64,000 nt of DNA from Candidatus Niyogibacteria bacterium (lineage in GTDB: Bacteria > Patescibacteriota > Minisyncoccia > HO2-45-28). The translations under genes were made by a program, and so were the position numbers. Positions within the stretch are counted from its first letter, which is position 1. Each line of letters begins with the position of its first letter. The stretch is taken from assembly GCA_016432485.1 (NCBI GenBank), contig CP066691.1, positions 77,466-141,465 on the forward strand, written 5' to 3'. Below are positions 1-51,145 of the stretch, piece after piece. The notes beneath the pieces are model-generated. The model was not told the origin of the DNA. It did no database searches and saw only the letters and a program-made list of their open reading frames with translations.

Positions 1-1164
1 CTTAATTTCGGGACGCTTGTCGGCCACGGCACTTTGAGGCGCGCTTCGGGTATGGACGTGTCGCGGGAAGCAAGTCCGAACGAACTTGAAAAAATGGCCT
101 ATTTGTTAAGCAGAGCTCTGCGGGAAGGAGCTTTAGGGATTTCAACCAGTTTGGGCCGCAGTTACGCTCTGGCCGCCGATGACAATGAAGTGGAAAGTCT
201 TTTATTTTTGATAAAAAAAGCGGGGAAGCTGGCAACGCACCATCTTGAAGATGAGGGAGGCGGCATTGTGGCGGCGGTTTCAAGAATTGTTTCTTTGAGC
301 CGCGCTTCCGGCGCAAGGAGCCACATTTCTCACTTTAAGGTTTTAGGCAAGAAATCCTGGCCGCAGCAAAAAAAAGCTTTAGAAATAATTGAGCGCGCGA
401 TAACCGGAGGAATGGAGATTACCGCGGATTTTTTTCCTTACACCGCGACCGGCTCCGATCTTTATCTTCTTTTACCGGAGTGGGCCATAATCGGGAAGCA
501 AAATGAAATACTTGGTCGTTTGTCCGATGCCGATATCAGAGAAAAAATTATAAACGCTTTAAAGCTCATGACTCTTCACTACGATAAAATAATCGCGGCT
601 TCAACTTTAAAAGACACTAATGTTGTCGGAAAAAGCCTGGAAGCCGCGGCTAAGGATGCCGGTTTAAGTCCGGAAGAAATGATTATTAATCTGCTTATAG
701 CCAATAATCTGCAGGTCAGTATTTTTAACGAAGTCATTTCGGAGGAAAATATGCTTGAACTGGCTTCCAAGGACTATACGGCTATATCTTCCGACGGTTT
801 TGGTCTTGGGGCGGGCCTCAAATCCCCGCAAAACAACCTTTCGCATCCAAGGTCGTTCGGCGCCTTCCCGCGGGCTTTGAGATGGCTTGTGAAGGAAAAG
901 GGGGTTTTGAGCTGGGAAGAGGCCATACGAAAGATGACCAGCTTGCCCGCGAAAATTTTGGGTATTGAAAAAAGAGGGCAGATTAAAGAGGACTTTTTCG
1001 CGGACATAGTACTTTTTGACCCCGAGACGATCACGGATGAAGCCGACTACAAAAATCCACATCGTTTTTCGAGGGGAGTGGAGCATCTTTTCATCAACGG
1101 ACAGGCCGTTTTATCCGGCGGAGAATTAACGGGAGAAAGACCGGGAAGAGTGATTATGAAATAA
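1..1164 (+). CDS. N-acyl-D-amino-acid deacylase (D-aminoacylase)-like amidohydrolase, C-terminal part; 5' end upstream of window
   Basis: Frame 1 is open from nt 1 to the stop at 1162-1164. The translation (…ADFFPYTATGSDLY…, …RGVEHLFINGQAVLSGGELTGERPGRVI) resembles the C-terminal half of D-aminoacylase-type amidohydrolases. Confidence 0.5.
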   Translation, partial: LNFGTLVGHGTLRRASGMDVSREASPNELEKMAYLLSRALREGALGISTSLGRSYALAADDNEVESLLFLIKKAGKLATHHLEDEGGGIVAAVSRIVSLSRASGARSHISHFKVLGKKSWPQQKKALEIIERAITGGMEITADFFPYTATGSDLYLLLPEWAIIGKQNEILGRLSDADIREKIINALKLMTLHYDKIIAASTLKDTNVVGKSLEAAAKDAGLSPEEMIINLLIANNLQVSIFNEVISEENMLELASKDYTAISSDGFGLGAGLKSPQNNLSHPRSFGAFPRALRWLVKEKGVLSWEEAIRKMTSLPAKILGIEKRGQIKEDFFADIVLFDPETITDEADYKNPHRFSRGVEHLFINGQAVLSGGELTGERPGRVIMK

Positions 1165-1194
1165 AGAAACCTTAAATCGGACAGGCATCTGTCC

Positions 1195-1320
1195 GATTTA
1201 ATAAAATCCCTTAACCCCCTTACTCCCATTTTCTCCCCTTAATCCCTTTTATCCCCTTACCCCCATTTTACTTCCCATTTTCCCCCTTTAGTCCCCCTCA
1301 CCCCTTTTACCGCAGTTGTT
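1195..1320. repeat. Degenerate ~9-10 nt periodic C/T-rich tract (plus strand almost G-free; minus strand carries >=11 runs of G3-G5 separated by A-rich spacers), G-quadruplex-capable
   Basis: Read directly: ttaaccccct tactcccatt ttctcccctt aatccctttt atccccttac ccccatttta cttcccattt tcccccttta gtccccctca cccc. The minus strand reads GGGGTAAAAGGGGTGAGGGGGACTAAAGGGGGAAAATGGG…. Confidence 0.7.
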
Positions 1321-1375: not shown

Positions 1376-1481
1376 AGGGCGGGGTTTTAGGTTGAAATCA
1401 GGCCAAAAATGCGGGAAAGTAAGGGGAAGATGAGTAAGTCATTCACGATTTATCCAAGGGGGACATCCGGCCTCCCAGAAA

Positions 1482-1548: not shown

Positions 1549-1584
1549 TTGACTTGCACCATATTGATGCATTATGATTATAGC
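1549..1584 (+). promoter_or_regulatory. Putative sigma70-like promoter (TTGACT 1549-1554, ~17-18 nt spacer, TtATGAT/TATAGC -10 candidates) feeding a leaderless start at 1585
   Basis: Hexamers read directly. The ORF-track start at 1549 is a TTG that coincides with the -35 box. Confidence 0.3.
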
Positions 1585-1893
1585 ATGTCATTAGAAGAAA
1601 TATCGGGATACAAGGCAATAAAGCGTCTCGCCGTGGAGCGACCAGATTGGCTTCCCATCGTTCGGGAGTGTCTCGCTTTTACGAAAGAATATAAAGCCGA
1701 TTTTGCAGGAGCTTGGATATACCAGCGCTTGCAAGAAAAAGGTGGGCCAAGATTTTCAAATCTCCGCCTACTCGTTAGTTTCGGTATCTTGAAAAAAGAG
1801 GGCACTTCCCGCGCCGGCCGCCGCGCCTATTATTCGTTTGTTGATCCAGTGGGCGTTGAAGAAGCATTAAAAGAACTTTCTCAAGAAATATGA
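1585..1893 (+). CDS. Hypothetical small protein (about 102 aa), first gene of the RM/OLD operon
   Basis: ORF MSLEEISGYKAIKRLAVERPDWLPIVRECLAF…; the first ATG after the putative promoter; its stop overlaps the next start (ATATGA at 1888-1893). No family recognised. Confidence 0.45.
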   Translation: MSLEEISGYKAIKRLAVERPDWLPIVRECLAFTKEYKADFAGAWIYQRLQEKGGPRFSNLRLLVSFGILKKEGTSRAGRRAYYSFVDPVGVEEALKELSQEI

Positions 1894-2377: not shown

Positions 2378-4642
2378 ATGGAACTATCAGACAACGAAAA
2401 AAGAGATATCGTGAAATATTTGGAAGCGGGAAAACCGCTTCCGGAAAAGTATCGTTTTTTGCTTTTTGATGATGATAGAGAAGTTGAGTTACTTTGGAAT
2501 GGTAAGACAAATGAGGTAACGAATGTTGTCTTACCTTTTCAAGTTATTGAGCAAATAGACGAGCCGAGGAGCGACGCAAAATTTGGCAATCAAAATTCTC
2601 TTTTTGACACCTCGGGACGACAAATAACCGGATGGACGAATAAATTGATTTGGGGAGACAATAAATTGATTCTCTCATCTCTTAAAAATGGACCGCTTCG
2701 CAAAGAAATAGAAGCGCAGGGCGGTTTGAAATTGATTTATATTGACCCGCCGTTTGATGTTGGGGCGGACTTTTCTATGGATATAAAAATTGGTGATGGT
2801 GAGGATGAAGAAAGTTTTACAAAAAAACCGTCAGTGATAGAAGAAATTGCCTATCGCGACACTTGGGGCAAAGGTGCGGATAGTTTTATTGCGATGATTT
2901 ATGAGCGATTGAAACTCATGCACGATTTGCTTGCCGCAGACGGAAGTATTTATGTGCATTGTGACTGGAGAGTGAATAGCTATATGAGGTTAGTTTTAGA
3001 TGAGATTTTTGGTAAGGATAACTTTAGAAATGAAATTGTTTGGAAAAGAACATACTCAACAAAAGCACAGAGTGTTGGTTATGGTAAAACGCATGAGCTT
3101 ATTTTGTTTTACGCAAAAAGTGAGACTACTAAATTAAAGCAACTTTACCAAAAACCAGCTGATGATTATGTAGATAAATATTTTAATAAAACAGATGAGA
3201 ATGGCAAAAAGTACCAATCTTTGAGTTTGACTCAGCAAGGACAGGGTCCCGCTAGATTTTTTGGGGACAGACTAATTGAACCACCCAATGGGATGCATTG
3301 GATTTGGGGGCAAGACCGAATAACAAAAGCTTTTCAGGAAGGTAGAATAGTTTTTACAAAAAACAATTTTCCGAGACTTAAGAAATATCTTGAAGAATGG
3401 AATGAACAAGGTCGTCCGGTTGATGGACTTTGGGTTGATGATGAAGTTGGACCATTAAACTCCTGGCACGGGGAATCGCTGGATTACCCTACACAAAAAC
3501 CGGAGTCAATGCTTGGGCGTATAATTCAATCCTCTTCAAATGAAGGCGATCTTGTTGCTGATTTCTTCTGCGGTTCGGGGACAACGCTTGCGGTTGCTGA
3601 AAAACTCGGCAGAAAATGGATTGGCTCTGACTTGGGGAAATTTGGCATACATACATCACGAAAGAGAATGATTGGCGTACAGCGAGAATTGAAAAAGGAA
3701 AGCAAAAATTTCAGGGCTTTTGAAATCTTAAATGTTGGTAGATACGAAAGAGAAAATTTCCTCGCGACAAATAACGACTTGCGAGCGGAAGAGAAATCAA
3801 AACAAGCCGATAGAAAAGAAAAAGAATTTGTAAAACTCATTCTCTCTGCGTACAAAGCGGAGCCGGTGGAATCTTTTGTAAATGTTATCGGCAAGAAAAG
3901 AGATCGACTTGTGGCGGTGGGACCCATCGATACTCCGGTTTCCTCAAAACTGGTGCAGGACATTGTAAACGAGTGTATAGAAAAAGGAATAACTAAAATT
4001 GATGTGCTTGGTTTCGATTATGAAATGGGGCTTGATTTTTCCCAGTATAAAGATCAGGGCATTGATATTGCTTTCAGAATAATTCCGAGAGAAGTTTTTG
4101 ACAGAAAAGCGGTAGAAAAGGGTCAAGTGAAGTTTTATGATGTGGCGTTTATTGAAGCGAAGCCGATTATCAAAGGGAGGGGAAGCGAAAAAGAAATTTC
4201 TATCGAACTTACCGACTTTTCCGTTTTCTACAATCAAGATGATTCCGGTGAAATAGCCGAGGCGCTTCGGCCCGGTGGTTCTAAGGTTGTAGTGGAAGAT
4301 GGACAAGTGGTGAAAATCACTAAAGACAAGAAAACTGAAGAAATTTCAAAAGAAGTTTTGACTAAAAAATGGAGCGACTGGATTGATTATTGGGCGGTGG
4401 ATTTTGATTTTGCAAGCAGAAAAGAAATCATCAAAATAATTGAGGATGGTGAAGAAAAAGAAGTTTGGACTGGCGACTATATTTTCGACAACGAATGGCA
4501 GAGTTTCCGCACGAAAAAGAACAGAAATCTTGACCTCGTCACTCCTCCCAAGGTGGCTACAAAAGGCAAGCATAAAATAGCCGTAAAGGTCGTGGATATT
4601 TTCGGAAATGACACGACAAAGGTAATAGAAGTAAATATATGA
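2378..4642 (+). CDS. mod: Type III-like restriction-modification methyltransferase (Mod; beta-class N6-adenine/N4-cytosine MTase)
   Basis: Motif IV LIYIDPPFDVGADF comes before motif I DFFCGSGTT, and FRNEIVWKR is present. This order is the beta-class arrangement used by Type III Mod. Start taken at MELSDNEKRD (ATG 2378) after the stop of the upstream ORF. Confidence 0.8.
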   Translation: MELSDNEKRDIVKYLEAGKPLPEKYRFLLFDDDREVELLWNGKTNEVTNVVLPFQVIEQIDEPRSDAKFGNQNSLFDTSGRQITGWTNKLIWGDNKLILSSLKNGPLRKEIEAQGGLKLIYIDPPFDVGADFSMDIKIGDGEDEESFTKKPSVIEEIAYRDTWGKGADSFIAMIYERLKLMHDLLAADGSIYVHCDWRVNSYMRLVLDEIFGKDNFRNEIVWKRTYSTKAQSVGYGKTHELILFYAKSETTKLKQLYQKPADDYVDKYFNKTDENGKKYQSLSLTQQGQGPARFFGDRLIEPPNGMHWIWGQDRITKAFQEGRIVFTKNNFPRLKKYLEEWNEQGRPVDGLWVDDEVGPLNSWHGESLDYPTQKPESMLGRIIQSSSNEGDLVADFFCGSGTTLAVAEKLGRKWIGSDLGKFGIHTSRKRMIGVQRELKKESKNFRAFEILNVGRYERENFLATNNDLRAEEKSKQADRKEKEFVKLILSAYKAEPVESFVNVIGKKRDRLVAVGPIDTPVSSKLVQDIVNECIEKGITKIDVLGFDYEMGLDFSQYKDQGIDIAFRIIPREVFDRKAVEKGQVKFYDVAFIEAKPIIKGRGSEKEISIELTDFSVFYNQDDSGEIAEALRPGGSKVVVEDGQVVKITKDKKTEEISKEVLTKKWSDWIDYWAVDFDFASRKEIIKIIEDGEEKEVWTGDYIFDNEWQSFRTKKNRNLDLVTPPKVATKGKHKIAVKVVDIFGNDTTKVIEVNI

Positions 4643-6288
4643 AGTTTATAAAAAAAATAGAGATTCATTCTTTTAGGTCATGTGAAAATATGCACATTGA
4701 AAATTGTGAAAATTTTAATGTTTTTTTGGGTCTCAACAATTCTGGCAAATCAAATATTCTACGTGCTTTAAATTTATTTTTTAACGGAGAAATTGAGCCG
4801 GGTTTCAAATTTCTTTTGGAAAGAGATGGTAATTTCCCTCCCAAGAAACGTAAAAAGAAAGAAGTTGAAATTAGTATTACTTTTGATACAAGAGAATTAA
4901 AAAAATTACCCCAGTTTAAAAAGGCTGTTGGAAACATTGTTGATGATTATGTAATTACAAAAGTATGGGGTTACCAAGGTTTTTCTGAGGGCCTAATTGT
5001 TGCTAAAGGAAAAGACCAGCTTGATAAGGCCCAAAACCTTCTAAAATTTATAAGATTTCGATATTTAGTTGCTCATCGAGACCCTGCAAAAATCATTATA
5101 GAATCAGAAAAGCGTATACGAAAGGAACTACTTAGAAGGTTTAATTCACGTATTAAAAAGTCGCAAATTTCTGGAGGACAAAATTCCATTACCGAGGTTT
5201 TAAAAATTCTCGAAGATGCTTCAAAGTCATTAATTGACCCAATCGCACTACCCGTTAAAAGCTTATCACCGGAAGTTAAAGACCTTATCCTTTTAACACC
5301 TAAAACATTTCAAGATCTAGTTATTTCCTTGGGATACGCCGTTCAATTAAAAAATGAAAAAATGATTTCCGAAGAATTACAGGGGTCAGGCTTCCAAAGC
5401 CATTTAATGTTTAGAGTTTTGTACTTTGCGGATACGGCGTATAGTTTAGATTTTGGTTGGAAAGGTATAACAATTTGGGCTATCGAAGAACCGGAATCTT
5501 TTCTCCATAAAAATTTAGAGATAGAATTAGGGAAATTTTTTAATGAAATTTCTGAAAAATTTCGTATACAAATTTTTTGCACGACACATAGTGATGTTTT
5601 CCCTCAATATGCAAAAATGTCTTATTTAGCAAAATTTGATGATCTAAAATACTCTCAACTACAATACGATGTATCAAAAAAAATTATTCATGAGTCCTCA
5701 AAATTGGGTATTTCTTCGTTTGTTCATACACTACATTTTCAACAGGGAGTGCCACTTGTTTTAGTAGAGGGTAAAACTGACAAGAAAGTTGTGAATAAAA
5801 CCTTAGAACTTTTAGGTGATGCTGAATTTTTCAGTATTTTTGATAATTTTGATTTGAATCTAGACTCTGGTGGTGTTTCTCAATTATTAAAATATTTACA
5901 AAACAACAAGTTAGTTATTGATAGTAGACAAAAACCCTTTTATATTATTTTAGATTGGAATGAAGAGAATAAAACAGTTAATCAATTTAAAAAGATTAGT
6001 AAAAATATTTTTCCATATAAGTTTGACGAGTCAAAATGTAATCCAAATCTTGACAATAGTTTTAGTGGTATAGAAAGATATTTAACAACAGACTTTATTA
6101 AGAATCCTGCAACAGAAAAGACATTTTCGTATCAAACTGATTCTGTAAATTCTTCTATTTTGTCAATGAAAAAGAGAGTATTGGACGATAATAAAGTTTT
6201 TTTAGCTGATTATTTTGTGAAAAATGCTAGTAAATTGGATTTAAAATTTTTAGAACCAGAAATTAAGAAAGCTTTACACTTAAGTTAA
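4639..6288 (+). CDS. OLD-family ATP-dependent endonuclease-like protein (N-terminal ABC-type ATPase, C-terminal Toprim-like domain)
   Basis: Walker A GLNNSGKSNILRAL, Walker B/D-loop ITIWAIEEPESFLH, H-loop CTTHSD, and a C-terminal PLVLVEGKTDKKVV Toprim-like EGxxD motif. Its ATG overlaps the mod stop (ATATGA). Very AT-rich. Confidence 0.6.
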   Translation: MKFIKKIEIHSFRSCENMHIENCENFNVFLGLNNSGKSNILRALNLFFNGEIEPGFKFLLERDGNFPPKKRKKKEVEISITFDTRELKKLPQFKKAVGNIVDDYVITKVWGYQGFSEGLIVAKGKDQLDKAQNLLKFIRFRYLVAHRDPAKIIIESEKRIRKELLRRFNSRIKKSQISGGQNSITEVLKILEDASKSLIDPIALPVKSLSPEVKDLILLTPKTFQDLVISLGYAVQLKNEKMISEELQGSGFQSHLMFRVLYFADTAYSLDFGWKGITIWAIEEPESFLHKNLEIELGKFFNEISEKFRIQIFCTTHSDVFPQYAKMSYLAKFDDLKYSQLQYDVSKKIIHESSKLGISSFVHTLHFQQGVPLVLVEGKTDKKVVNKTLELLGDAEFFSIFDNFDLNLDSGGVSQLLKYLQNNKLVIDSRQKPFYIILDWNEENKTVNQFKKISKNIFPYKFDESKCNPNLDNSFSGIERYLTTDFIKNPATEKTFSYQTDSVNSSILSMKKRVLDDNKVFLADYFVKNASKLDLKFLEPEIKKALHLS

Positions 6289-6295
6289 AAAGTTT

Positions 6296-8989
6296 ATGGC
6301 ACTACATAAAGACTTTCCAAAAAACCCATACGCGATACTTGACCCGAATATTCGGTGGTTTCCTGCTGACGAAGATTTGCGGGAAAAAGGAGCTATTCAA
6401 AAACTTTTACCTCCTCTTGTCGCGGGTTTGCGGGAAAAAGTAAAAGAATGGCGAGATAAAAATTACGAGGGGGCAAGTAATACTTCTAAATCACTTTTGA
6501 ACTGGTGGTTCAAGGAGGAACATATTTTATATGACCAACACGGAGTATCTTCTCATTTCAAATACTATTTCGCGCAAAGAGAAGCGCTGGAAACAGTCGT
6601 ATGGCTTTATGAGGTGGCGAAAGTAAAAGATAAATACGACCTCATTCGTTACAACTCTACCGGCGTATTAAGTCCGCAAATGTTTACTGAAGAGTGGCTT
6701 CGCTTTGTGATAAAAATGGCGACTGGTGCGGGTAAGACCAAAGTAATGAGTCTAGTTGTCGCATGGGCGTATTTTCATAAAAAGTATGAGGAAGGTTCAA
6801 ATTTGGCAAAGAACTTTCTTTTAATAACGCCGAATGTCATTGTTTTTGAAAGAATAAAGAATGATTTTGAAGGATTGAAGATATTTTTTAGCGATCCTGT
6901 TTTGCCGGATAACGGCTATCACGGACAAAACTGGCAGGATGATTTTCAGATGACTCTGCATTTACAGGATGATTTGCGCAATGTTTCTGACACTGGAAAT
7001 ATATTTTTGACTAACATCCACAGAGTTTTTGAGGGTGATGTGCGCGAAGCGAGTGCAGAAGATGAGGACACTTCTCGATACTTCTTAGGCGATAAACCAG
7101 TCACAAAAACAAGCGACTCTACTGTGGATTTGGGGATGATAGTAAGAGATATCGACGAGCTTATTGTAATCAATGATGAAGCTCACCATTTGCACGATGA
7201 TAAATCAGCTTGGGTTAAATCAATTACCGACATAGACAATCGGCTTAAACAGAAAGGCGCGGGGCTATCTTTACAGCTTGACTTTACGGCTACACCAAAA
7301 AAGAACGATGGCTCCATTTTTGTGCAAACAATTTCCGACTATCCGCTTGTTGAGGCAATTCACCAAAGAGTTGTTAAAAATCCGGTTGTGCCGGACGCGG
7401 CAAGCCGAGGAAAACTGAAAGAAAATCAAAACACACTATTTAGCGAGAGATACCGAGATTATATAAATCTTGGTATTGAAGAATGGAAAAAAACATACGA
7501 AGTATTAAAACCGATGGGTAAAAAATCCATTCTTTTTATTATGACAGACGATACAAGGAATTGTGATGAGGTGGCGGAGTATATTGAAACAAGTTTTAAA
7601 GAGTTGAAAGGGGCAGTTTTGACTATACACACAAACAAGAGCGGAGAAATTTCTGAAAGTGTGTCCGGTAAAAGTAAAGAGGAATTGGATGTGCTTCGCA
7701 AACAAGCGAATGAAATTGATAGTTGGGAAAGCCCGTTCAAAGTAATTATTTCCGTAATGATGTTGAAAGAGGGTTGGGATGTAAAAAATGTAACGACAAT
7801 CGTCGGGCTACGACCTTTCGCAGCCGATTCAAAAATTCTGCCCGAACAAACTCTCGGACGAGGACTCCGTAGGATGTTTTTTGGCAGAGATGATGTTGAG
7901 GAATATGTGAGTGTTGTCGGAACTCCCGCTTTTATGGACTTTGTTGAATCAATCAAGGGCGAGGGCGTTATTCTTGAAAAGAAAGCGATGGGAACGGGAG
8001 CCAAGCCGATAGCTCCGATGGTTATTGAGGTTGATAAGGATAATCCGAAAAAGGACATTGAGAAGCTTGATATTGAGATTCCGGTGATGTCCCCTAGAAT
8101 TCAGAGGGAGTATAAAAACCTAGCCGAGCTGGATGTTTCCAAATTTGGGAATAAAAAGGTCAAAGTAAAAACATTCTCCGAAGAAGAAAAACGAGAAATC
8201 GTGTTTAAGGATGTTGTTGATGAAAAAATCCATCACACAACGATACTTTCTGGCGACATTGAACCTGATTATCAAAGCGTTATCGGATTTTTTGCGCAGG
8301 CAATAATGCGAGAACTACGGCTTTTTGGTTGCTACGATATTTTATTCGGCAAGGTAAGAGAGTTTGTGCAAAATAATATGTTTGACAGTCCCGTGAATTT
8401 ATCAGACCTCAATACTCTGCGAAATTTATCCGAGGTGGAGTATATACGGCTTATAAAAGATTCTTTCAAGAAAGCCATTAACGATCTTACAGTCGAAGAC
8501 AAAGGAGACACAGAGATAAAGAACTACATCAAAATTAGCGAAGCACGTCCTTTTGTCGTTAATGATAAATCGTATTTAATACCCAAAAAGTCTGTTTTCA
8601 ATAAGATTGTTGGCGATAGCGATTTTGAGCTAGTATTTTCTGATTTTCTCGAAAATTGTGATGATGCGATTTCTTTCGCAAAGAATTTTCAAAATAAAGA
8701 AGCGAGCGCGCTTAGAATTGAGTATAAAAATTCGGAAGGATTTATTGCTACCTACTACCCCGATTTCTTTGTTAAGAAAGATGAAAAAACGGTTTATATT
8801 ATTGAAACGAAAGGACGAGAAGAAGATGACGACAAGCTAAAATTTGAAAGACTGCAAAAGTGGTGTGAGGATGTAAATGATCGACAAAATCGGGTCGTCT
8901 ATAAAGCACTTTATATCAAACAAGAAGAATGGAAAAAAGATAAATTCAAGAATTTTGATGAGGTTGTTAGGGTGTTTGATTTAAAATAA
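6296..8989 (+). CDS. res: Type III restriction enzyme Res subunit (SF2 DEAH helicase fused to a C-terminal PD-(D/E)XK nuclease)
   Basis: Walker A MATGAGKTKV, DEAH box VINDEAHHL, motif VI QTLGRGLRR, and a C-terminal nuclease motif YYPDFFVKKDEKTVYIIETKGRE. Confidence 0.85.
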   Translation: MALHKDFPKNPYAILDPNIRWFPADEDLREKGAIQKLLPPLVAGLREKVKEWRDKNYEGASNTSKSLLNWWFKEEHILYDQHGVSSHFKYYFAQREALETVVWLYEVAKVKDKYDLIRYNSTGVLSPQMFTEEWLRFVIKMATGAGKTKVMSLVVAWAYFHKKYEEGSNLAKNFLLITPNVIVFERIKNDFEGLKIFFSDPVLPDNGYHGQNWQDDFQMTLHLQDDLRNVSDTGNIFLTNIHRVFEGDVREASAEDEDTSRYFLGDKPVTKTSDSTVDLGMIVRDIDELIVINDEAHHLHDDKSAWVKSITDIDNRLKQKGAGLSLQLDFTATPKKNDGSIFVQTISDYPLVEAIHQRVVKNPVVPDAASRGKLKENQNTLFSERYRDYINLGIEEWKKTYEVLKPMGKKSILFIMTDDTRNCDEVAEYIETSFKELKGAVLTIHTNKSGEISESVSGKSKEELDVLRKQANEIDSWESPFKVIISVMMLKEGWDVKNVTTIVGLRPFAADSKILPEQTLGRGLRRMFFGRDDVEEYVSVVGTPAFMDFVESIKGEGVILEKKAMGTGAKPIAPMVIEVDKDNPKKDIEKLDIEIPVMSPRIQREYKNLAELDVSKFGNKKVKVKTFSEEEKREIVFKDVVDEKIHHTTILSGDIEPDYQSVIGFFAQAIMRELRLFGCYDILFGKVREFVQNNMFDSPVNLSDLNTLRNLSEVEYIRLIKDSFKKAINDLTVEDKGDTEIKNYIKISEARPFVVNDKSYLIPKKSVFNKIVGDSDFELVFSDFLENCDDAISFAKNFQNKEASALRIEYKNSEGFIATYYPDFFVKKDEKTVYIIETKGREEDDDKLKFERLQKWCEDVNDRQNRVVYKALYIKQEEWKKDKFKNFDEVVRVFDLK

Positions 8990-9031
8990 TTTATGGAACC
9001 CTGGCCAACAAAAAATTAAAAAAATAAATTT

Positions 9032-10264
9032 ATGCCAAAACAAAAGGAGATGTTGAATTTATTCAAGAAAATCAAGGCGGAATTTTTGGGGAAGAAAATC
9101 CTTTTGGTCGGCCTTGGATTGCAGGGCGGGGGAGAGGGTGTTGCGAAATTTCTTTTGAAAGCCGGATCTAAACTCACCATCACGGATTTACGTCCGAAAA
9201 AGGATTTCACCCGATTTTTAAAAAAGTTTGCCAAAAAAAGGGTAAAATTTATCTTCGGGCGTCATCGTTTTTCGGATTTTAAAGCATCCGATATCATCAT
9301 TAAAAATCCCGCCGTCTCCGAGGCCTCGCCTTTCATAAAATACGCCAGAAAAATCGGCAAGCCCGTTTTGACCGAAACCCAAATTTTTTTTGACCTCGTC
9401 CCCAGAGAAAAAATAATCGGCGTCACCGGCACCAAAGGCAAGACCACGACGGCCATGCTTCTGACACACCTGCTTAAAAGCCGTTTTAAAGTTGAACTGG
9501 TGGGAAATATTCCGGGGCGCTCGGCGCTTGAATCGCTTGCAGGTCTAAAAAAATTTCCCGACTTTTTTGTCTACGAACTTTCGAGTTTCAATCTGGAGGG
9601 GCTTCGCGTAAGCCCCAAATACGCGATTATCATCAACATTTTTCCCGACCATCTGAATCGTTATAAAAGTTTTAATGAATACAAAAAAGTTAAAAGCAAC
9701 ATTTTTAAATATCAAAAAAGGGGAGATTTTTTATGGTTTGAAAGAAAAAACAGCTTTTCTTCGGACATCGCCGGGAAAGTCGCCCTGTCTTTCGGGATAA
9801 GCGATAGAGAGGTAAAAAAACGCCTGAAATCCTTTAAGCCGGCCGAGGGACGCCTGGAGAATCTAGGAAAAATAAAAGGAGCGCTCCTGATAAACGATAC
9901 CACCTCCACTAACCCCGGCGCTACTCTTTTTGGCATAGCTCAAATTCAGAAACGCCTTAAGATTAAATCCCGGCGCGTTATTTTGATTGCCGGAGGAGAA
10001 AATAAAAAACTCAAATACGGCGAATTTTCAAAAAAAATCAAAGGGTTGAAGAAAGTTATTTTGATCCCTGGTTCCGCTTCAGACCTTATAAAAGGCAAGA
10101 ATATCTTGCGTGTTAAAACTCTTAAAGATGCGGTTAAAAAAGCGTTTGAAATCGCCAAGAAAGGAGATTCAATACTTTTTTCTCCCGCCTCCGCAAGTTT
10201 TAACGCTTTTAAAAATGAGTTTGAGCGCGGACGAGCTTTCAAAAAAATCGTAAAATCCCTATAA
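9032..10264 (+). CDS. murD: UDP-N-acetylmuramoylalanine--D-glutamate ligase
   Basis: GVTGTKGKTTTAML motif. Sits in the murD-ftsW-murG order. Confidence 0.85.
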   Translation: MPKQKEMLNLFKKIKAEFLGKKILLVGLGLQGGGEGVAKFLLKAGSKLTITDLRPKKDFTRFLKKFAKKRVKFIFGRHRFSDFKASDIIIKNPAVSEASPFIKYARKIGKPVLTETQIFFDLVPREKIIGVTGTKGKTTTAMLLTHLLKSRFKVELVGNIPGRSALESLAGLKKFPDFFVYELSSFNLEGLRVSPKYAIIINIFPDHLNRYKSFNEYKKVKSNIFKYQKRGDFLWFERKNSFSSDIAGKVALSFGISDREVKKRLKSFKPAEGRLENLGKIKGALLINDTTSTNPGATLFGIAQIQKRLKIKSRRVILIAGGENKKLKYGEFSKKIKGLKKVILIPGSASDLIKGKNILRVKTLKDAVKKAFEIAKKGDSILFSPASASFNAFKNEFERGRAFKKIVKSL

Positions 10265-11360: not shown

Positions 11361-12491
11361 ATGAGAATTCTTTTGACCGGAGGGGGAACCGGAGGCCACT
11401 TTTTTCCGATAGTGGCCGTAATCCGCGCGCTTAAAAAAATGGCCGAATCCGAAAAATTTGTTGAAATGGAGCTAGTGTATCTTTCGGATAGTCCCTACGA
11501 CCTCGGCATTTTAAAAGAAGAGGGAGTGGAATTCATATCTGTTCCGGCTGGAAAAATCCGCCGTTACTTTTCCTTGTTTAATTTCACCGATTTATTTAAA
11601 ACCGCCTGGGGCATAATCCGCGCGATAATATACGTTTTTGGCAAGATGCCTGACGTTATTTTTGCTAAGGGAGGGTATGCCAGTTTTCCGGCCCTGATTG
11701 CGGCGAGGCTTTTTAAAATTCCGGTAATAATCCATGAATCGGATTCGGCGCCGGGCCGGGTTAACCGCTGGGCCGGATCTTTTGCCAAACGCATCGCTAT
11801 TTCGTTTCCGGAAAGCGCAAAATATTTTCCTTCCTCCAAAACGGCTTTAATCGGAAATCCGGTTCGGGAACGGATTTTGGGCGGGAACATTGAAGAGGCC
11901 CGGTCTATTTTTGGCTATGAAGATGTTCCGACCGTGCTGGTTCTTGGCGGTTCGCAGGGTTCTGCTAAATTAAACGATATTTTAATAGATATACTTCCCG
12001 AAATTTTAAAAGAAGCAAAAATTATCCATCAATGCGGTAAGAATAATTTTGACGATGTTTCCAAGAGGATCTCGGTGGTTTTGGGGCAGAATCAATTTAA
12101 AAACAGGTATAAACTTTTTGCCTTTTTAGATGAAAATATTTTGCGAAGCGCCGTTTTAGTGTCAAATTTAATTGTTTCGCGGGCGGGCGCCGGAGCGATA
12201 TATGAGATAGCCGCGTGGGGTAAGCCGTCTTTATTGATACCTCTTCATAATTCAGCCCAAGACCATCAGCGTCAAAATGCTTACGCTTACGCCCGAGCCG
12301 GCGGCGCTGCTCTGGTGGTTGAAGAAGAAAATCTGGCTCCGAATCTTCTTTTGGCTGAAATACGAAAATTATTAAGCGATAAGCCGCGGCTCGAAAGAAT
12401 GGCCCGGGCGGCTTCCAATTTCGCCAAAATTGACGCCGCCGAAATCCTGGCGCGCCAGATTATATTATTGGCTTTGGAACATGTAAGATAA
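11361..12491 (+). CDS. murG: UDP-GlcNAc--MurNAc-pentapeptide undecaprenol GlcNAc transferase
   Basis: MRILLTGGGTGGHFFPIVAV N-terminus. Start chosen at ATG 11361, just after the ftsW stop. Confidence 0.85.
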   Translation: MRILLTGGGTGGHFFPIVAVIRALKKMAESEKFVEMELVYLSDSPYDLGILKEEGVEFISVPAGKIRRYFSLFNFTDLFKTAWGIIRAIIYVFGKMPDVIFAKGGYASFPALIAARLFKIPVIIHESDSAPGRVNRWAGSFAKRIAISFPESAKYFPSSKTALIGNPVRERILGGNIEEARSIFGYEDVPTVLVLGGSQGSAKLNDILIDILPEILKEAKIIHQCGKNNFDDVSKRISVVLGQNQFKNRYKLFAFLDENILRSAVLVSNLIVSRAGAGAIYEIAAWGKPSLLIPLHNSAQDHQRQNAYAYARAGGAALVVEEENLAPNLLLAEIRKLLSDKPRLERMARAASNFAKIDAAEILARQIILLALEHVR

Positions 12492-12494
12492 ATT

Positions 12495-12539
12495 AACCTA
12501 ATTTCTAATTAACCTAATTCACCTAAAATATTCAATTTC
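12495..12539 (+). promoter_or_regulatory. Upstream region of gltX containing TAATTTCTAATTA and repeated AACCTAATT motifs
   Basis: taaattaacctaatttctaattaacctaattcacctaaaatattcaatttcATG. The TAATTTCTAATT 12-mer recurs at 15608 and 34143. Confidence 0.35.
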
Positions 12540-15589: not shown

Positions 15590-15652
15590 AATAAAATTAT
15601 TCTAATTTCTAATTGCTCTAATTATTCTAATCAATTAGAATAATTAGAAATT
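15590..15652. promoter_or_regulatory. Array of TTCTAATT/AATTAGAA 8-mers forming overlapping palindromes (includes the perfect IR ttattctaat-ca-attagaataa) immediately upstream of the nuclease gene
   Basis: taaaattattctaatttctaattgctctaattattctaatcaattagaataattagaaattATG, read directly. Confidence 0.5.
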
Positions 15653-39570: not shown

Positions 39571-39641
39571 TGGACCGTGGGAGAATCGAACTCCCGTCTC
39601 CCGGATGCAAACCGGGTGCATTGCCACTGTGCTAACGGCCC
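39571..39641 (-). tRNA. tRNA-Ala (anticodon TGC)
   Basis: Minus strand: GGGCCGT-TA-GCAC…TGCA-CCCGG-TTTGCAT-CCGGG-AGAC-GGGAG-TTCGATT-CTCCC-ACGGTCC-A. It has the G3:U70 Ala identity pair and the UGC anticodon. No encoded CCA. Confidence 0.8.
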
Positions 39642-44673: not shown

Positions 44674-44747
44674 GCGGCTATAGCTCAGTTGGTTAGAGCG
44701 CGTCACTGATAATGACGAGGTCCTTGGTTCGAGTCCAAGTAGCCGCA
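44674..44747 (+). tRNA. tRNA-Ile (anticodon GAT)
   Basis: GCGGCTA-TA-GCTC-AGTTGGTTA-GAGC-G-CGTCA-CTGATAA-TGACG-AGGTC-CTTGG-TTCGAGT-CCAAG-TAGCCGC-A. A perfect cloverleaf. Confidence 0.9.
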
Positions 44748-44780
44748 CTAAATGTAGAGCAAATTTTTGGTACGGGGCAA

Positions 44781-44949: not shown

Positions 44950-45420
44950 TAGCAGAAATTTCTGACACTGACGAACGCCCCGCCGCCCGCCTCCGCTAAC
45001 GCTCCGGCGGCAACCTCGCAGAAAAATATCCTCCGCAATTCTTTTTTTGCGCGCGCCCGATTTTTTCCTAAACAAGGAAGAGGATATTTTCTGCTCGGTT
45101 CCGCCCTCCAAGTATTTGGGCGGAGCGGCGGGGCTTCCATTCGCTTGGACGGCGCGGAATTCCCCCCTTGAACCCCCCTTCCGCCGCGCCCGAGCCGAAG
45201 CGAAGCCCCGTCGCCTGCTCTTTTAAGAGCAGAAGCCAGCAAAAAAGTTTTCTTCACCTTTTAGAAGAAAAAATTTATGGCGCGCGAAAATCAAAAATTG
45301 AGAAGAAAACTTTTTTGCTGGCTGGCGAGCGTCAGCGAGCGGCGGCGGGGCGAAGCGTCAGGCGTTCCGTTCAAAATAGGTTCGGATTATTTTCAGAGTA
45401 CTCCACAAGACTCCAAAATT
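44950..45420. repeat. GC-rich block containing several degenerate copies of the CCGCC…GGCGG palindromic element family
   Basis: For example, ccccgccgcccgcctccgctaacgctccggcgg (44988-45010) is approximately the reverse complement of the 36402 copy. ggagcggcggggc is repeated at 45122 and 45333. The ORFs predicted here (44949..45257, 45168..45437) look spurious. Confidence 0.5.
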
Positions 45421-48140: not shown

Positions 48141-49122
48141 GGTATTATGGTCTAATATCTTTTCAAATATTTAGCCATGCACCACTGGGCAAGCAGTTTT
48201 CCTGCACCCTAGCGGTTTTCGTAGGTTCGGGCTTTTTTGCCTCGAGCCCTGATTTCTTCGCGTATTTTGATAATTTTCTTAAATCCTTTGTCCGTTAAAT
48301 GCTCTTTCTGTTTTACTTTCAAAACAATTGTTTTGAATCTTTTGTAGACCTCCGCCTTTTTTGCCTGTAAAGGACATTTATCAAGAAACGGAAAAAGAAA
48401 TTCTGTTAAATCCTTGTTGTTTGTAATTTTATATTTTACATGCGGATACCATCCATACCTTTCGTATGAAAGATCATAAATTCGTCCGCACCCAATTGTG
48501 ATTAAGATTCGTTCCAATATTTCTCTGTCATCGGCCCGAACTTCTATTTCAAACTCCGGCCTTATTTCAAGGCCGCGTTTAAGAGTTTTGTGTCTGCCAA
48601 TGCTTACTGAAAACGATCCCTCACCGTCAATAAAACCCGCAACATAGTTAGGATCAAGTTTTTTCCTACGAATTCGTTCCTTCCCAAACGGCGCTTTTAA
48701 TAAGCAGTTTTTGTGGTCGTCATTTTCAGACGACTTTCGTTTGGTACTACGAACTTTGCTGACTTCTTGCGTTGTTTTTGGACGATTGCTCGTTTTCATA
48801 CCTCGAGGTTATTATACCACGAGGACAACGCAAGATCTCCCACGGTAACCCATATATCTGTGTGTATCTATCTCGATGCCACTACACGCGTTATGCATTT
48901 TTTGCGGCGGGATTCTTCCTGTACTCGAGGAATCTCCCGCATAACGCGCCACAAACTGGCATTCAAGCTAAATACTGCTAATTTCACCCTTCGCCACGGC
49001 TCCTCGCGGAGACGGGCTGTGATTTTGCTTCGTTTCTACCGCAAAGAAACGGCTGGACTTCCGAGCGCATAAAACGTTATGTGCTTCGGTCACCAGCTAG
49101 ATACACGGATCGCATGGCGACC
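48141..49122 (-). mobile_element. ~1 kb intron in 16S (E. coli position ~1390-1400) encoding a LAGLIDADG homing endonuclease; probable group I intron
   Basis: The conserved GTACAC|ACCGCCCGTC block is split by ~980 nt containing a sense-strand ORF. Confidence 0.75.
48209..48799 (-). CDS. LAGLIDADG homing endonuclease (intron-encoded)
   Basis: YVAGFIDGEGSF motif. Same strand as the rRNA. Confidence 0.8.
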   Translation of the reverse strand: MKTSNRPKTTQEVSKVRSTKRKSSENDDHKNCLLKAPFGKERIRRKKLDPNYVAGFIDGEGSFSVSIGRHKTLKRGLEIRPEFEIEVRADDREILERILITIGCGRIYDLSYERYGWYPHVKYKITNNKDLTEFLFPFLDKCPLQAKKAEVYKRFKTIVLKVKQKEHLTDKGFKKIIKIREEIRARGKKARTYENR

Positions 49123-49630
49123 CGAGTACAAGACTCGAGAACGTATTCACCGCGGCGTTCTGATCCGCGATTACTAGCGATTCCGGCTTCACGAGGTCAG
49201 GTTGCAGACCTCGATCCGAATTGGGGCCGGCTTTGATGGGATTAGCTCCGCCTTACGGCTTGGCGACCCTTTGAACCGGCCATTGTAGCACGTGTGTAGC
49301 CCAGGGCATCAGAGGGCCATGCTGACTTGGCGTCATCCCCACCTTCCTCCCCGCCCTCTAAGCTCTACTTTAAATCCTCTTTACAAACTTATTGTGTTGA
49401 AGATTTACAACGACCGACGCGGTCATTGTTAAAGCATAGAGGGCGGGGCAGTTTCGCCTGACATATATAACAGGCAATGGGGGTTGCGCTCGTTACCCCA
49501 CTGAAGGGAACAACTCAAGCCACGAGCTGACGACAGCCATGCAGCGCCTGTCCAGCCGTCCTTGTGAGAAAACCTGCCTTTCGGCAAATTGTCGTCTGGA
49601 TTTCAAGCCCTGGTGAGGTTCTTCGCTTAC

Positions 49631-49665
<35 letters not shown>

Positions 49666-49676
49666 AGTCCCCGTCT

Positions 49677-49718
<42 letters not shown>

Positions 49719-49813
49719 GAGGCTTAACGCGTTAGCTTCGACACTCAAAGGGTCGATACTTCGAATATCTAGCCTCCATCGTTTAGGGCGCGGAGTACAA
49801 GGGTATCTACATC

Positions 49814-50200
49814 ATTGTTACTTAAACCGAACTTATTAATCATCGGTTAAGGAGCGAACATTTCTGCCGCTCTCTCCGTGTTACCACGAAGATCGGACTA
49901 TATCATCCCGCCAACATCTATAAAGTTGTGGCGGGCTCGGCGTATAGTCTCTACGGGGTTACTGGAAACTTATACTTGTATTTAGGCAATATATATTTTT
50001 TAACTGCAAACCACAATTTTTTAATTATCGTATATTTGCCATAAACACACGTATAAGTTTCCAGAACTTCCCTCGGTATTTTCCGTTTTTTAAAAACGGA
50101 TTTCTACCGATATAGCCGAGTTTGCATTCCATTGTCGCCAATGGAAGGGACTAGCAGCCAACTTTAATTATATCAATAAAGTTGGATACCCATGCCAATC
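49814..50200 (-). mobile_element. ~390-nt ORF-less intervening sequence in 16S (E. coli position ~790-800); probable intron
   Basis: GGGTATCTAATCC…CGCTTTCG is interrupted. No ORF longer than 60 aa on the rRNA strand. Confidence 0.55.
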
Positions 50201-51042
50201 CTTTTCCATACCCGCGCTTTCGTGTTTCAGAGTCAGGAACGCGCCAGTAGACTGCCTTCGCCTTTGGTGTTCCCCTGGATATCAATGGATTTCACTCCTA
50301 CACCCAGAGTTCCGTCTACCTCTCGCGTCCTCCGAGTTCAATGGTATCCCCTGCATTTTCGCCGTTGGGCGGCGATATTTAACAAAAGACTCATTAAACC
50401 TCCTACACACCCTTTACGCCCAGTAAATCCGGATAACGCTTGGGCTCCTCGTATTACCGCGGCTGCTGGCACGAGGTTAGCAAGCCCTTATTCATGGGAT
50501 ACTGTCACTTGCGTTCATCTCCCATAAAAGCAGTTTACGTCCCGAAGGATTTCTTCCTGCACGCGGCGTCGCTCGATCAGGCTTTCGCCCATTGTCGAAT
50601 ATTCTCGACTGCTGCCACCCGTAGGTGTATGGCCCGTGTCGCAGTGCCATTGGTGGGGGGCGAGCTCTCACTCCCCCTAGCCGTCATAGCCTTGGTAGGC
50701 TTTTACCCTGCCAACAAGCTGATAGCCCGCAGACCTTTCCCAGAGCGTCTTACGACTTTACCCTCACGGGAACTATCGGGAATTAGCCCCGCTTTCGCGG
50801 GGTTATGCCCGTCTCTGGGGTAAGTATCTACGTATTACTACCCCGTCTGCCACTCGCCAACGCTTCGCGTTGGAAGCACGAAATCCTAAATCCGAAATAC
50901 GAAACAAACTCAAAATTACAATACTCAAATTCCAAATGTTTTTAGTTTAGAATTTCGAGTTTGGATATTGTTTCGGATTTCGATATTCGAATTTCGAATT
51001 TCCAGTGCGAAGCACTGGCTCGTACGACTTGCATGCCTTATC

Positions 51043-51145
<103 letters not shown>

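Follow-up and report, generated by a model that had tools for sequence, protein, structure and literature searches.

The window, that is, the whole 64-kb stretch of Candidatus Niyogibacteria DNA analysed here, opens with the 3' part of a D-aminoacylase-like amidohydrolase gene on the plus strand (34-1164, stop codon at 1162-1164; Pfam Amidohydro_3/1), the product of which is 100% identical to a protein from a Candidatus Niyogibacteria MAG. It is the last host gene before an insertion, and beyond the right end of the insertion lies murD (9050-10264, plus strand). Five relatives were compared, with amidohydrolases 63-72% identical, and in four of them only 2-20 nt separate the amidohydrolase gene from murD, which heads the series murD-ftsW-murG; the fifth carries a different small insert after its amidohydrolase gene. 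This adjacency implies that the DNA from 1165 to about 9049 (~7.9 kb) has been inserted, and the inserted DNA includes both a terminator-like hairpin and the C-rich tract that is the subject of this analysis. The tract starts 41 nt past the amidohydrolase stop codon. The placement of the tract at the upstream boundary of a defence operon, as first proposed in an earlier note made from this DNA, is thus borne out, with the tract 41 nt inside the left junction and four of the five relatives without the insert, and the defence island at whose left margin it lies, acquired horizontally, splits a cell-wall operon.

The operon in the island is a type III restriction-modification (R-M) system with an OLD-family ATPase embedded in it, as identified by Pfam, PADLOC and NCBIfam. 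All of its genes are on the plus strand, with Mod at 2378-4642, the OLD/GajA-like ATPase-Toprim protein at 4639-6288 and Res at 6296-8989, preceded by orf159 (1890-2369) and by the first gene, orf102/108 (1585-1893), which encodes a protein of 102 amino acids with a winged-helix fold. The AF2 model of this protein has a pLDDT of 85.5 and was matched by Foldseek to winged-helix-turn-helix (wHTH) proteins of the PadR/ArsR type (probability 0.99, E ~0.03), and the protein is probably the controller of the cassette. A promoter/operator block lies ahead of it on the plus strand (1549-1587), with the boxes TTGACT-18-TATGAT at 1549-1578 matching the consensus at 10 of 12 positions in a promoter scan, and the ATG follows 7 nt past the -10 box, so that the transcript would be leaderless. 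The operator of the controller is a palindrome centred on ATGCAT within the promoter, and the whole block is invariant across related cassettes. Between res and murD no terminator was found. The island has no reverse transcriptase, so that a retron-like non-coding RNA, a candidate prompted by a weak match of the OLD ATPase to a retron Eco8 effector, was set aside. As a separate observation, the 16S rRNA gene of this genome contains a group I intron.

On the plus strand there is no G at all between 1196 and 1290 (95 nt), a single G occurs at 1291 and the following stretch from 1292 to 1311 is again without G, so that 116 nt (1196-1311) hold one G and eleven runs of three to five Cs. The tract proper can be set at 1205-1312 on the plus strand, with base counts of 50 C, 40 T, 16 A and 2 G. 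The C runs start at 1208, 1215, 1225, 1235, 1244, 1253, 1260, 1274, 1282, 1293 and 1301, spaced 7-14 nt apart (mean 9.3), and they are separated by irregular spacers such as TTAA, TTACT, ATTTTCT, TTA and TCA, among others. The minus strand accordingly carries eleven runs of three to five Gs separated by A/T spacers, the number found being that of the at least eleven consecutive runs claimed by the earlier note. The same note had described a tract of about 125 nt at 1195-1320 made of almost G-free C/T repeats; the tract is there and G is nearly absent from it, with limits rather at about 1196 or 1205 to 1311 or 1312, and the description as C/T is slightly inexact given that some 15% of it is A.

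In composition the tract departs clearly from chance. Elsewhere in the 64 kb no G-free run exceeds 54 nt, and first-order Markov shuffles of the window give runs free of G or of C of at most 65 nt. In the same shuffles no stretch of 120 nt has more than 9 same-base runs, compared with 11 in the tract, so that values like those of the tract are never attained, and the tract is also the extreme of the window in G4Hunter score, as given below. Shuffling the tract itself yields 5.7 +/- 1.4 runs of three or more Cs, compared with the 11 observed (P = 2e-4). Three independent Logan assemblies of other samples (L011-L013) contain the identical sequence, base for base, from which it follows that the tract is no assembly artefact and is real and stable. 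It is both real and statistically exceptional.

Within the tract a hierarchy of degenerate repeats of about 9, 19 and 49 nt can be recognised. TRF reports a period of 19 (2.9 copies, 83% matches) and a period of 9 (6.2 copies), and from TRF, direct repeats and a unit scan a tandem unit of about 19 nt, with the consensus CCCCTTACYCCCATTTTAC, can be followed along the plus strand from 1216 to 1312. The unit is made up of two C runs with T/A spacers and occupies five positions, 1216-1234, 1235-1252, 1253-1273, 1274-1292 (permuted) and about 1293-1312, which are spaced 18-21 nt apart and are 60-83% alike (63-83% matches by TRF). In the unit scan these score 11-19, the maximum in 200 random segments of the window being 11. 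A single inverted copy, reading CCCCTTACTTTCCCGCATTTT on the minus strand, lies at 1406-1426 with a score of 11, a value which 0.5% of random 411-nt segments of the window reach. The tract is therefore most likely a lineage-specific degenerate tandem repeat, or minisatellite, of some five copies of a ~19-nt unit. Spacings of 18, 19, 12 and 27 nt between T runs are out of helical phase, and a role through phasing or curvature was rejected.

A repeat of this kind need not have a function. It is a real, if somewhat doubtful, possibility that the tract is a neutral and cryptically simple minisatellite which arose by replication slippage or template switching at the hairpin-prone junction of horizontally acquired DNA, its other properties, whether resembling those of a G-quadruplex (G4) or of a Rho utilisation (rut) site, being incidental. 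Such an origin would sit well with the restriction of the tract to one lineage, with the hierarchy of degenerate repeats, with units just 60-83% alike, with the lack of any Rfam match and with the fact that amplification of a G-free unit gives a G-free tract automatically. What it accommodates less easily is the constancy of the C runs, all eleven of which keep at least three Cs although the spacers differ in sequence and length, with short C runs strongly depleted (5 observed, 21.6 expected from shuffles of the tract). The sequence is moreover the same across at least three samples, and the region looks organised, with its inverted unit and a terminator on either flank. That one G has been gained despite the divergence of the units is a weak argument, there being about a dozen substitutions, and a test for avoidance of G among the unit substitutions was not significant, ~6-12 substitutions being too few.

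The tract does not stand alone, it forms one part of a structured non-coding buffer of ~310 nt in which a first hairpin, the C-rich arm, a palindrome, a G-rich arm with the inverted unit and a second hairpin follow one another. Hairpin 1 (1172-1201) has a perfect 13-bp stem and a 4-nt loop, is terminator-like in both directions with the better U-tail on the minus strand, where it was flagged by a terminator scan, and is missing in the relatives without the insertion. Hairpin 2 (1479-1514), directly upstream of the island promoter, has a perfect 15-bp stem and a 6-nt loop with A/U-flanked arms and also resembles a bidirectional terminator; read from both strands, the two hairpins have the A-tract and U-tract flanks of such terminators. 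Between the tract and hairpin 2 there is a small palindrome read from the sequence, GTTGTT-AG-AACAAC (1315-1328), which is paired in all folds, and then an extended palindrome (1323-1388; 76% over 68 nt when the region is compared with itself by BLAST) with a core at 1338-1375 of 18-nt arms that are 94% complementary. The G-rich arm (1376-1461, plus strand) is predicted by the folds to base-pair with the tract's right half. Nothing in the whole buffer is coding; the tract has stop codons in all frames on both strands, and the sole open reading frame that touches it (1047-1229, minus strand, 60 amino acids) runs antisense into the amidohydrolase gene. Rfam gave no family at the gathering threshold anywhere in the window, and for 1100-1650, at E <=10, nothing beyond generic hairpin noise.

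The search for similar sequences that the earlier note had proposed found the tract to be unique within the 64-kb window and found none like it in the five relatives, in phages or in plasmids; the unit, a 28-mer and the palindrome, searched for separately, were not found in viral contigs. The winged-helix gene with its invariant promoter/operator is present in many genomes of the Candidate Phyla Radiation (CPR) and others, where it heads differing cargo, and the element upstream of it elsewhere can be a tRNA, a serine recombinase gene in divergent orientation or a hairpin of ~90 nt. In none of more than 100 related cassette loci is there a G-free tract of >70 nt at the same position. Four sister islands (L127-L130), found via homologues of orf159 and having orf159, Mod and Res in common with this island, have no tract and a different first gene. 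As far as can be sampled from these sequences, the tract would appear to be unique to this lineage.

The hairpin of related CPR cassettes is one of the closer parallels to the tract. It has a C/T-rich 5' arm, a loop of T7/G7-9 and a G-rich 3' arm, and about nine loci carry it (among them L016, L017, L022, L023, L026, L035, L051 and L099), with some compensatory changes between the arms. With the tract it shares its placement with respect to the conserved promoter, the C-rich arm first and the G-rich arm second, and a locus-wide maximum of C over G followed by one of G over C; it differs in being ~90 nt long, with one copy of the arm and with its T7/G7-9 loop. Across the related cassettes, C exceeds G most strongly, over the whole locus, at 110-160 nt ahead of the promoter, with the G>C maximum coming after it, in 8 of 13 non-redundant loci, which are not independent as several share the same hairpin sequence. 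The leaders of the relatives match no Rfam family, a covariance model built from seven of their hairpins matched the leader in the window at E ~2 (1328-1385), as a generic hairpin, and BLAST found no similarity between the relatives' hairpin and the window leader. An expansion of the C-rich arm of this hairpin into the tract, suggested by a MAFFT alignment and by a 10-mer common to both (CCCTCACCCC), was downgraded, having support from neither the covariance model nor BLAST. The likeness is thus an analogy of architecture, with no demonstrable homology.

Of the functions considered, the one we tentatively favour, as a possibility that falls well short of a firm assignment, is that the tract is the amplified C-rich arm of an insulating leader which shields the R-M island from host transcription; it is in this form that the transcription barrier mentioned by the earlier note is kept. 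RNA that is rich in C, free of G and unstructured is the textbook loading platform for Rho, and R-M operons regulated by a controller (C) protein depend on being shielded from outside transcription. With a wHTH controller acting on a conserved leaderless promoter, insulation would matter here too, to judge from those C-protein systems. In such a scheme the C-rich arm would have been enlarged by slippage or duplication of the ~19-nt units, and an RNA polymerase leaving the host operon and passing hairpin 1 would make an untranslated, G-free and largely unstructured C-rich RNA. Rho would load on this RNA and the pause hairpins would come next, the RNA also being able to pair with the G-rich arm, and host transcription would thereby stop short of the leaderless, controller-regulated R-M promoter. 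The scheme would take as given transcription of the plus strand, the presence of Rho in this organism and any selection on the tract.

The composition of the leader is consistent with this. The most extreme 78-nt window of C over G on the plus strand of the whole sequence is 1209-1286 (37 C, no G), and that of the minus strand is 1359-1436; the two C-rich arms thus converge on the central palindrome, and from either direction a C-rich RNA would be made ahead of it. In plus-strand folds the first 50-90 nt of the tract are unpaired. On the left the island is closed by the two perfect hairpins (13 and 15 bp) that bracket the buffer, whereas on the right it is open and ends without a terminator. 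The C>G maximum ahead of the same promoter in 8 of 13 related loci also counts in favour, as an analogy. RhoTermPredict defines a Rho-dependent terminator by an excess of C over G (C/G >1) across 78 nt, by Cs recurring at 11-13 nt and by a pause hairpin within 150 nt, in an untranslated region (PMC6407284), and in formal terms the tract has a C/G ratio >1 and six Cs at 11-13-nt steps, is untranslated and is followed within <150 nt by the palindromes 1315-1328 and 1338-1375. Its likeness to rut sites as so defined (PMC6407284) extends to at least 78 nt of untranslated C-rich, G-poor RNA with regular Cs and little structure, to hairpin pause sites within 150 nt and to a place just past a stop codon. 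It differs from natural rut sites in being far more extreme (37 C and no G in 78 nt), in being a tandem repeat of conserved runs of three to five Cs and in having a hairpin like that of an intrinsic terminator ahead of it.

There are points against insulation as well. Hairpin 1 alone may end host transcription, and the tract would then be redundant. Rut sites need scattered Cs and not conserved runs of three to five, and the tract is found nowhere among the >100 cassettes, the sister islands or the relatives. No rho gene was found in the window, ~8% of the ~837-kb genome, or in the 650 kb of other loci that were retrieved, a result that carries no information on Rho in this organism, and literature searches on Rho or on G4s in CPR bacteria yielded nothing of use.

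The G-rich minus strand offers a further set of possible functions. G4Hunter gives -1.67 over 100 nt, the extreme of the window, and up to -2.24 over 25 nt, and putative quadruplex sequences (PQS) of the canonical G3+N1-7 form start at eight positions on the minus strand, found only here in the window. A PQS calls for four or more G runs, each of 3 nt or longer, with short loops and an absolute G4Hunter score above ~1.2-1.5, and by this measure the G4-capable minus strand predicted by the earlier note from its eleven G3-5 runs stands up computationally. Folded by itself with G4s allowed, the tract forms two of them at -19.4 kcal/mol, compared with -2.6 kcal/mol without (119 nt; RNA-model energies), whereas in the longer context of 1165-1478 the G4 loses to canonical pairing with the complementary arm (again with RNA-model energies). 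On the favoured reading the capability would be a by-product of strand asymmetry and not the feature that was selected. Two related suggestions of the same note did not survive. H-DNA would call for a homopurine-homopyrimidine mirror repeat of about 15 nt or more, and the longest pure pyrimidine run in the tract is 12 nt (the window maximum, elsewhere, being 17), the best mirror-repeat arms are 7 nt and 20% of the minus strand is T. A likeness to telomeric repeats is contradicted by irregular units at spacings of 7-14 nt and by the internal place of the tract, with genes on both sides.

A DNA-level role for the G4 is known from pilE of Neisseria gonorrhoeae, where G4 formation requires transcription (PMC3547852; PMC11170735), and by comparison leftward transcription from the palindrome could displace the G-rich non-template strand of the tract, giving G4s or a hybrid of G-rich RNA with C-rich DNA. 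The resulting G4/R-loop element would be a putative hot spot of breakage and recombination, or a replication barrier, that promotes the exchange of defence cassettes. The two systems are alike in that a variable locus is preceded by a motif able to form a G4 and, with the cis-acting small RNA of pilE in mind, by a possible adjoining promoter whose transcription would free the G-rich strand. The pilE motif is a single, strictly conserved 16-nt sequence, whereas the tract has eleven degenerate runs in one lineage, and pilE has silent donor copies and recombination at the motif, neither of which was found for the tract.

The assembly graphs bear on this reading too. All Logan contigs, from at least nine samples, break at the 31-mer at 1381-1411, ~70 nt from the tract, the left contigs ending at 1410 and the right ones starting at 1382 with exactly one 31-mer missing between them, as would be expected if this 31-mer were a node common to another sequence context. 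The branching graphs, the differing cargo behind the controller gene in different genomes, the strongest PQS cluster of the window, the two G4s predicted for the tract alone and the orientation of the candidate promoter, which makes the G-rich strand the non-template, all speak for a pilE-like element. We nevertheless think it decidedly unlikely, as neither a recombinase nor donor cassettes nor duplicates of the sequence were found, the length of the tract is the same in all assemblies, related cassettes swap cargo without such a tract, and the G4 is itself a prediction with which the complementary arm competes in silico. Still less credence is given to a transcription-activated G4/R-loop recombination module made up of the array of G runs together with the inverted unit, the promoter borne by the palindrome and the shared node of 31 nt, and the step from there to a module that would trigger breaks or template switching, and thereby swaps of defence cargo behind the conserved CPR controller gene, is to be regarded with just as much scepticism.

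That the tract is itself a scar of integration or recombination, as had also been suggested, is not supported by the junctions, which have no direct or inverted repeat of at least 9 nt in common (no k-mer of >=9 nt is common to 1140-1580 and 8880-9120 on either strand), and there is neither a tRNA nor a recombinase gene in the island. An att site, a target-site duplication and a MITE were likewise rejected, with no shared end repeats, no second copy in the window and no tRNA nearby.

If the minus strand is transcribed, the product itself might be what matters. A purine-rich small RNA of ~170 nt could start at about 1336 and end at hairpin 1, with eight GGA and eleven G-run motifs in an unstructured stretch, and could act as a sponge, either for an RNA-binding protein (Csr/Rsm-like) or for partners that are C-rich or anti-Shine-Dalgarno-like. 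The eight GGA motifs can be read on the minus strand, the tract alone has nearly no canonical structure, hairpin 1 has its U-rich tail on this strand and is the only terminator call on this element in 1000-2000, and a candidate extended -10 element, TGTTAGAAT, lies at 1351-1343 on the minus strand. This element is a consensus match from a lenient promoter scan, with a weak -35 box (3/6), and the standard scan gave nothing on the minus strand. Related leaders have no matching promoter, the RNA is conserved nowhere else, and no match to CsrB, RsmX, RsmY or RsmZ was found in Rfam at E <=10 (1100-1650); nor was csrA found in the window, which covers ~8% of the genome. The Csr/Rsm sponges CsrB, RsmY and RsmZ are also short RNAs with many GGA motifs that end in a strong intrinsic terminator, but they present GGA in hairpin loops, whereas the proposed RNA is an unstructured purine tract with no Rfam similarity and a doubtful promoter. 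We regard a small RNA as unlikely.

The repeats could also be sites for a protein. Four to five direct units, then an inverted unit and then a promoter make up a layout which we take to resemble iteron or parC arrangements, and with a wHTH protein encoded next door the units might be putative binding sites for it or for the product of orf159, on which a repressive or partition-like complex would assemble. The units are poorly conserved for this (60-83%) and irregularly spaced (18-21 nt), the conserved operator of the controller is the different, ATGCAT-centred palindrome inside the promoter, and elsewhere the two small proteins have homologues with no such array near them. Iterons and centromeres are expected to consist of conserved, phased repeats of 17-22 bp together with a Rep or Par protein, and neither such repeats in the tract nor a Rep or Par gene or domain in the island was found, which makes an iteron- or centromere-like array very unlikely.

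A phase-variable simple-sequence repeat was rejected, as the units are degenerate and the sequence is the same in three assemblies of different samples. The tract shares with the phasevarion repeats of type III mod genes an association of a repeat with type III R-M, but those are perfect units of 1-5 nt, within mod or its promoter and variable in length, whereas the tract is degenerate, does not vary between the assemblies and sits behind a terminator, ~240 nt ahead of the promoter.

The tract falls within known kinds of sequence, being at once a PQS cluster, a rut-like bubble of C over G and a cryptically simple repeat, and what is described here is modest, a single lineage-specific sequence with a function proposed from its letters. 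For the finishing of CPR genomes it matters that assemblies break repeatedly at the tract and the 31-mer next to it. Were the G4 reading right, no earlier G4-linked element would have been reported in Patescibacteria, as no paper was found that combines both terms. If it is an insulator, it would offer a natural element that is rut-like in an unusually clean form, in a phylum whose transcription termination is unstudied. A mobile R-M island could then split an essential cell-wall operon whilst being walled off from host transcription on one side, and expression of murD-ftsW-murG, on the other, would probably come under its control.

The small winged-helix gene that opens the island, the type III R-M/OLD insertion between an amidohydrolase gene and murD, stands at the head of defence cargo that varies from genome to genome, in CPR as well as in other phyla, and its promoter/operator is almost invariant, reading TTGACTTGYAYCAYWKTGATRCATTATGATTATAGCATG (window 1549-1587; loci L016-L037 and L096-L104). 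The gene is leaderless with its ATG 7 nt past the -10 box, the spacer of the promoter holds a palindrome centred on ATGCAT, and the product looks like a non-Xre analogue of the controller (C) proteins of R-M systems. In some genomes a divergent serine recombinase is found directly upstream of the controller-gene cassette and in others the cassette lies against a tRNA gene's 3' end (loci L029-L031 and L100-L102; L025, L027 and L033). Each of the two arrangements suggests that this family of cassettes has integrative mobility. A CPR-type hairpin, promoter and controller gene (77% identity) are also carried by a contig from a 'Methanosarcinales archaeon' bin, L099 (CAYHTH010000124.1), which is probably mis-binned.

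Assemblies break repeatedly close to this promoter. In at least 9 samples the left Logan contigs stop at 1410 and the right contigs begin at 1382, with exactly one 31-mer (window 1381-1411) absent between them, a gap which implies that this 31-mer is a graph node that those communities also contain in one or more other sequence contexts. Metagenome contigs of many studies terminate on the upstream side of the conserved promoter, 0-450 nt away from it (L016, L017, L021-L024, L035, L096-L099), with several of these ends falling within the hairpin element, the ~90-nt hairpin that precedes the promoter in other CPR cassettes. The homopolymers of the hairpin loop vary in length among close relatives, being G7, G8 or G9 and T6 or T7, and could be slippage-prone tracts or trouble spots for sequencing.

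Short degenerate 9-nt tandem repeats, AATTAACCT / AATTNTTCT, at 12491-12526 and 15595-15631 immediately precede start codons. Besides the tract at the left border of the island, they give rise to additional stretches free of G, with lengths of up to 54 nt. A GC-rich segment with many C runs (45100-45330; CCCCCCTTGAACCCCCC) ranks second in the window for extreme G4Hunter values; it lies ~400 nt downstream of the tRNA-Ile gene (44674-44748, plus strand), has a long palindrome of AT-rich sequence after it and has no match in Rfam. Neither this tRNA gene nor that for tRNA-Ala (39571-39641, minus strand) is linked to the 16S rRNA gene (49012-51088, minus strand), which spans 2,077 nt and is interrupted by a group I intron (49874-50189), and the window holds no 23S gene, all of which are oddities typical of CPR.

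Within the island an OLD/GajA/AriA-like ATPase-Toprim gene (4639-6288) sits between the type III mod and res genes, the same slot being occupied in the sister islands L127-L130 by a Schlafen-AlbA_2/HATPase_c_4 protein, and this may be an exchangeable accessory position. At the right end, the gap between res and murD (window 8990-9049) holds neither a terminator nor a good promoter, and transcription of the essential murD-ftsW-murG genes is probably now driven from the island. If these genes do depend on island transcription, loss of the island could be difficult.
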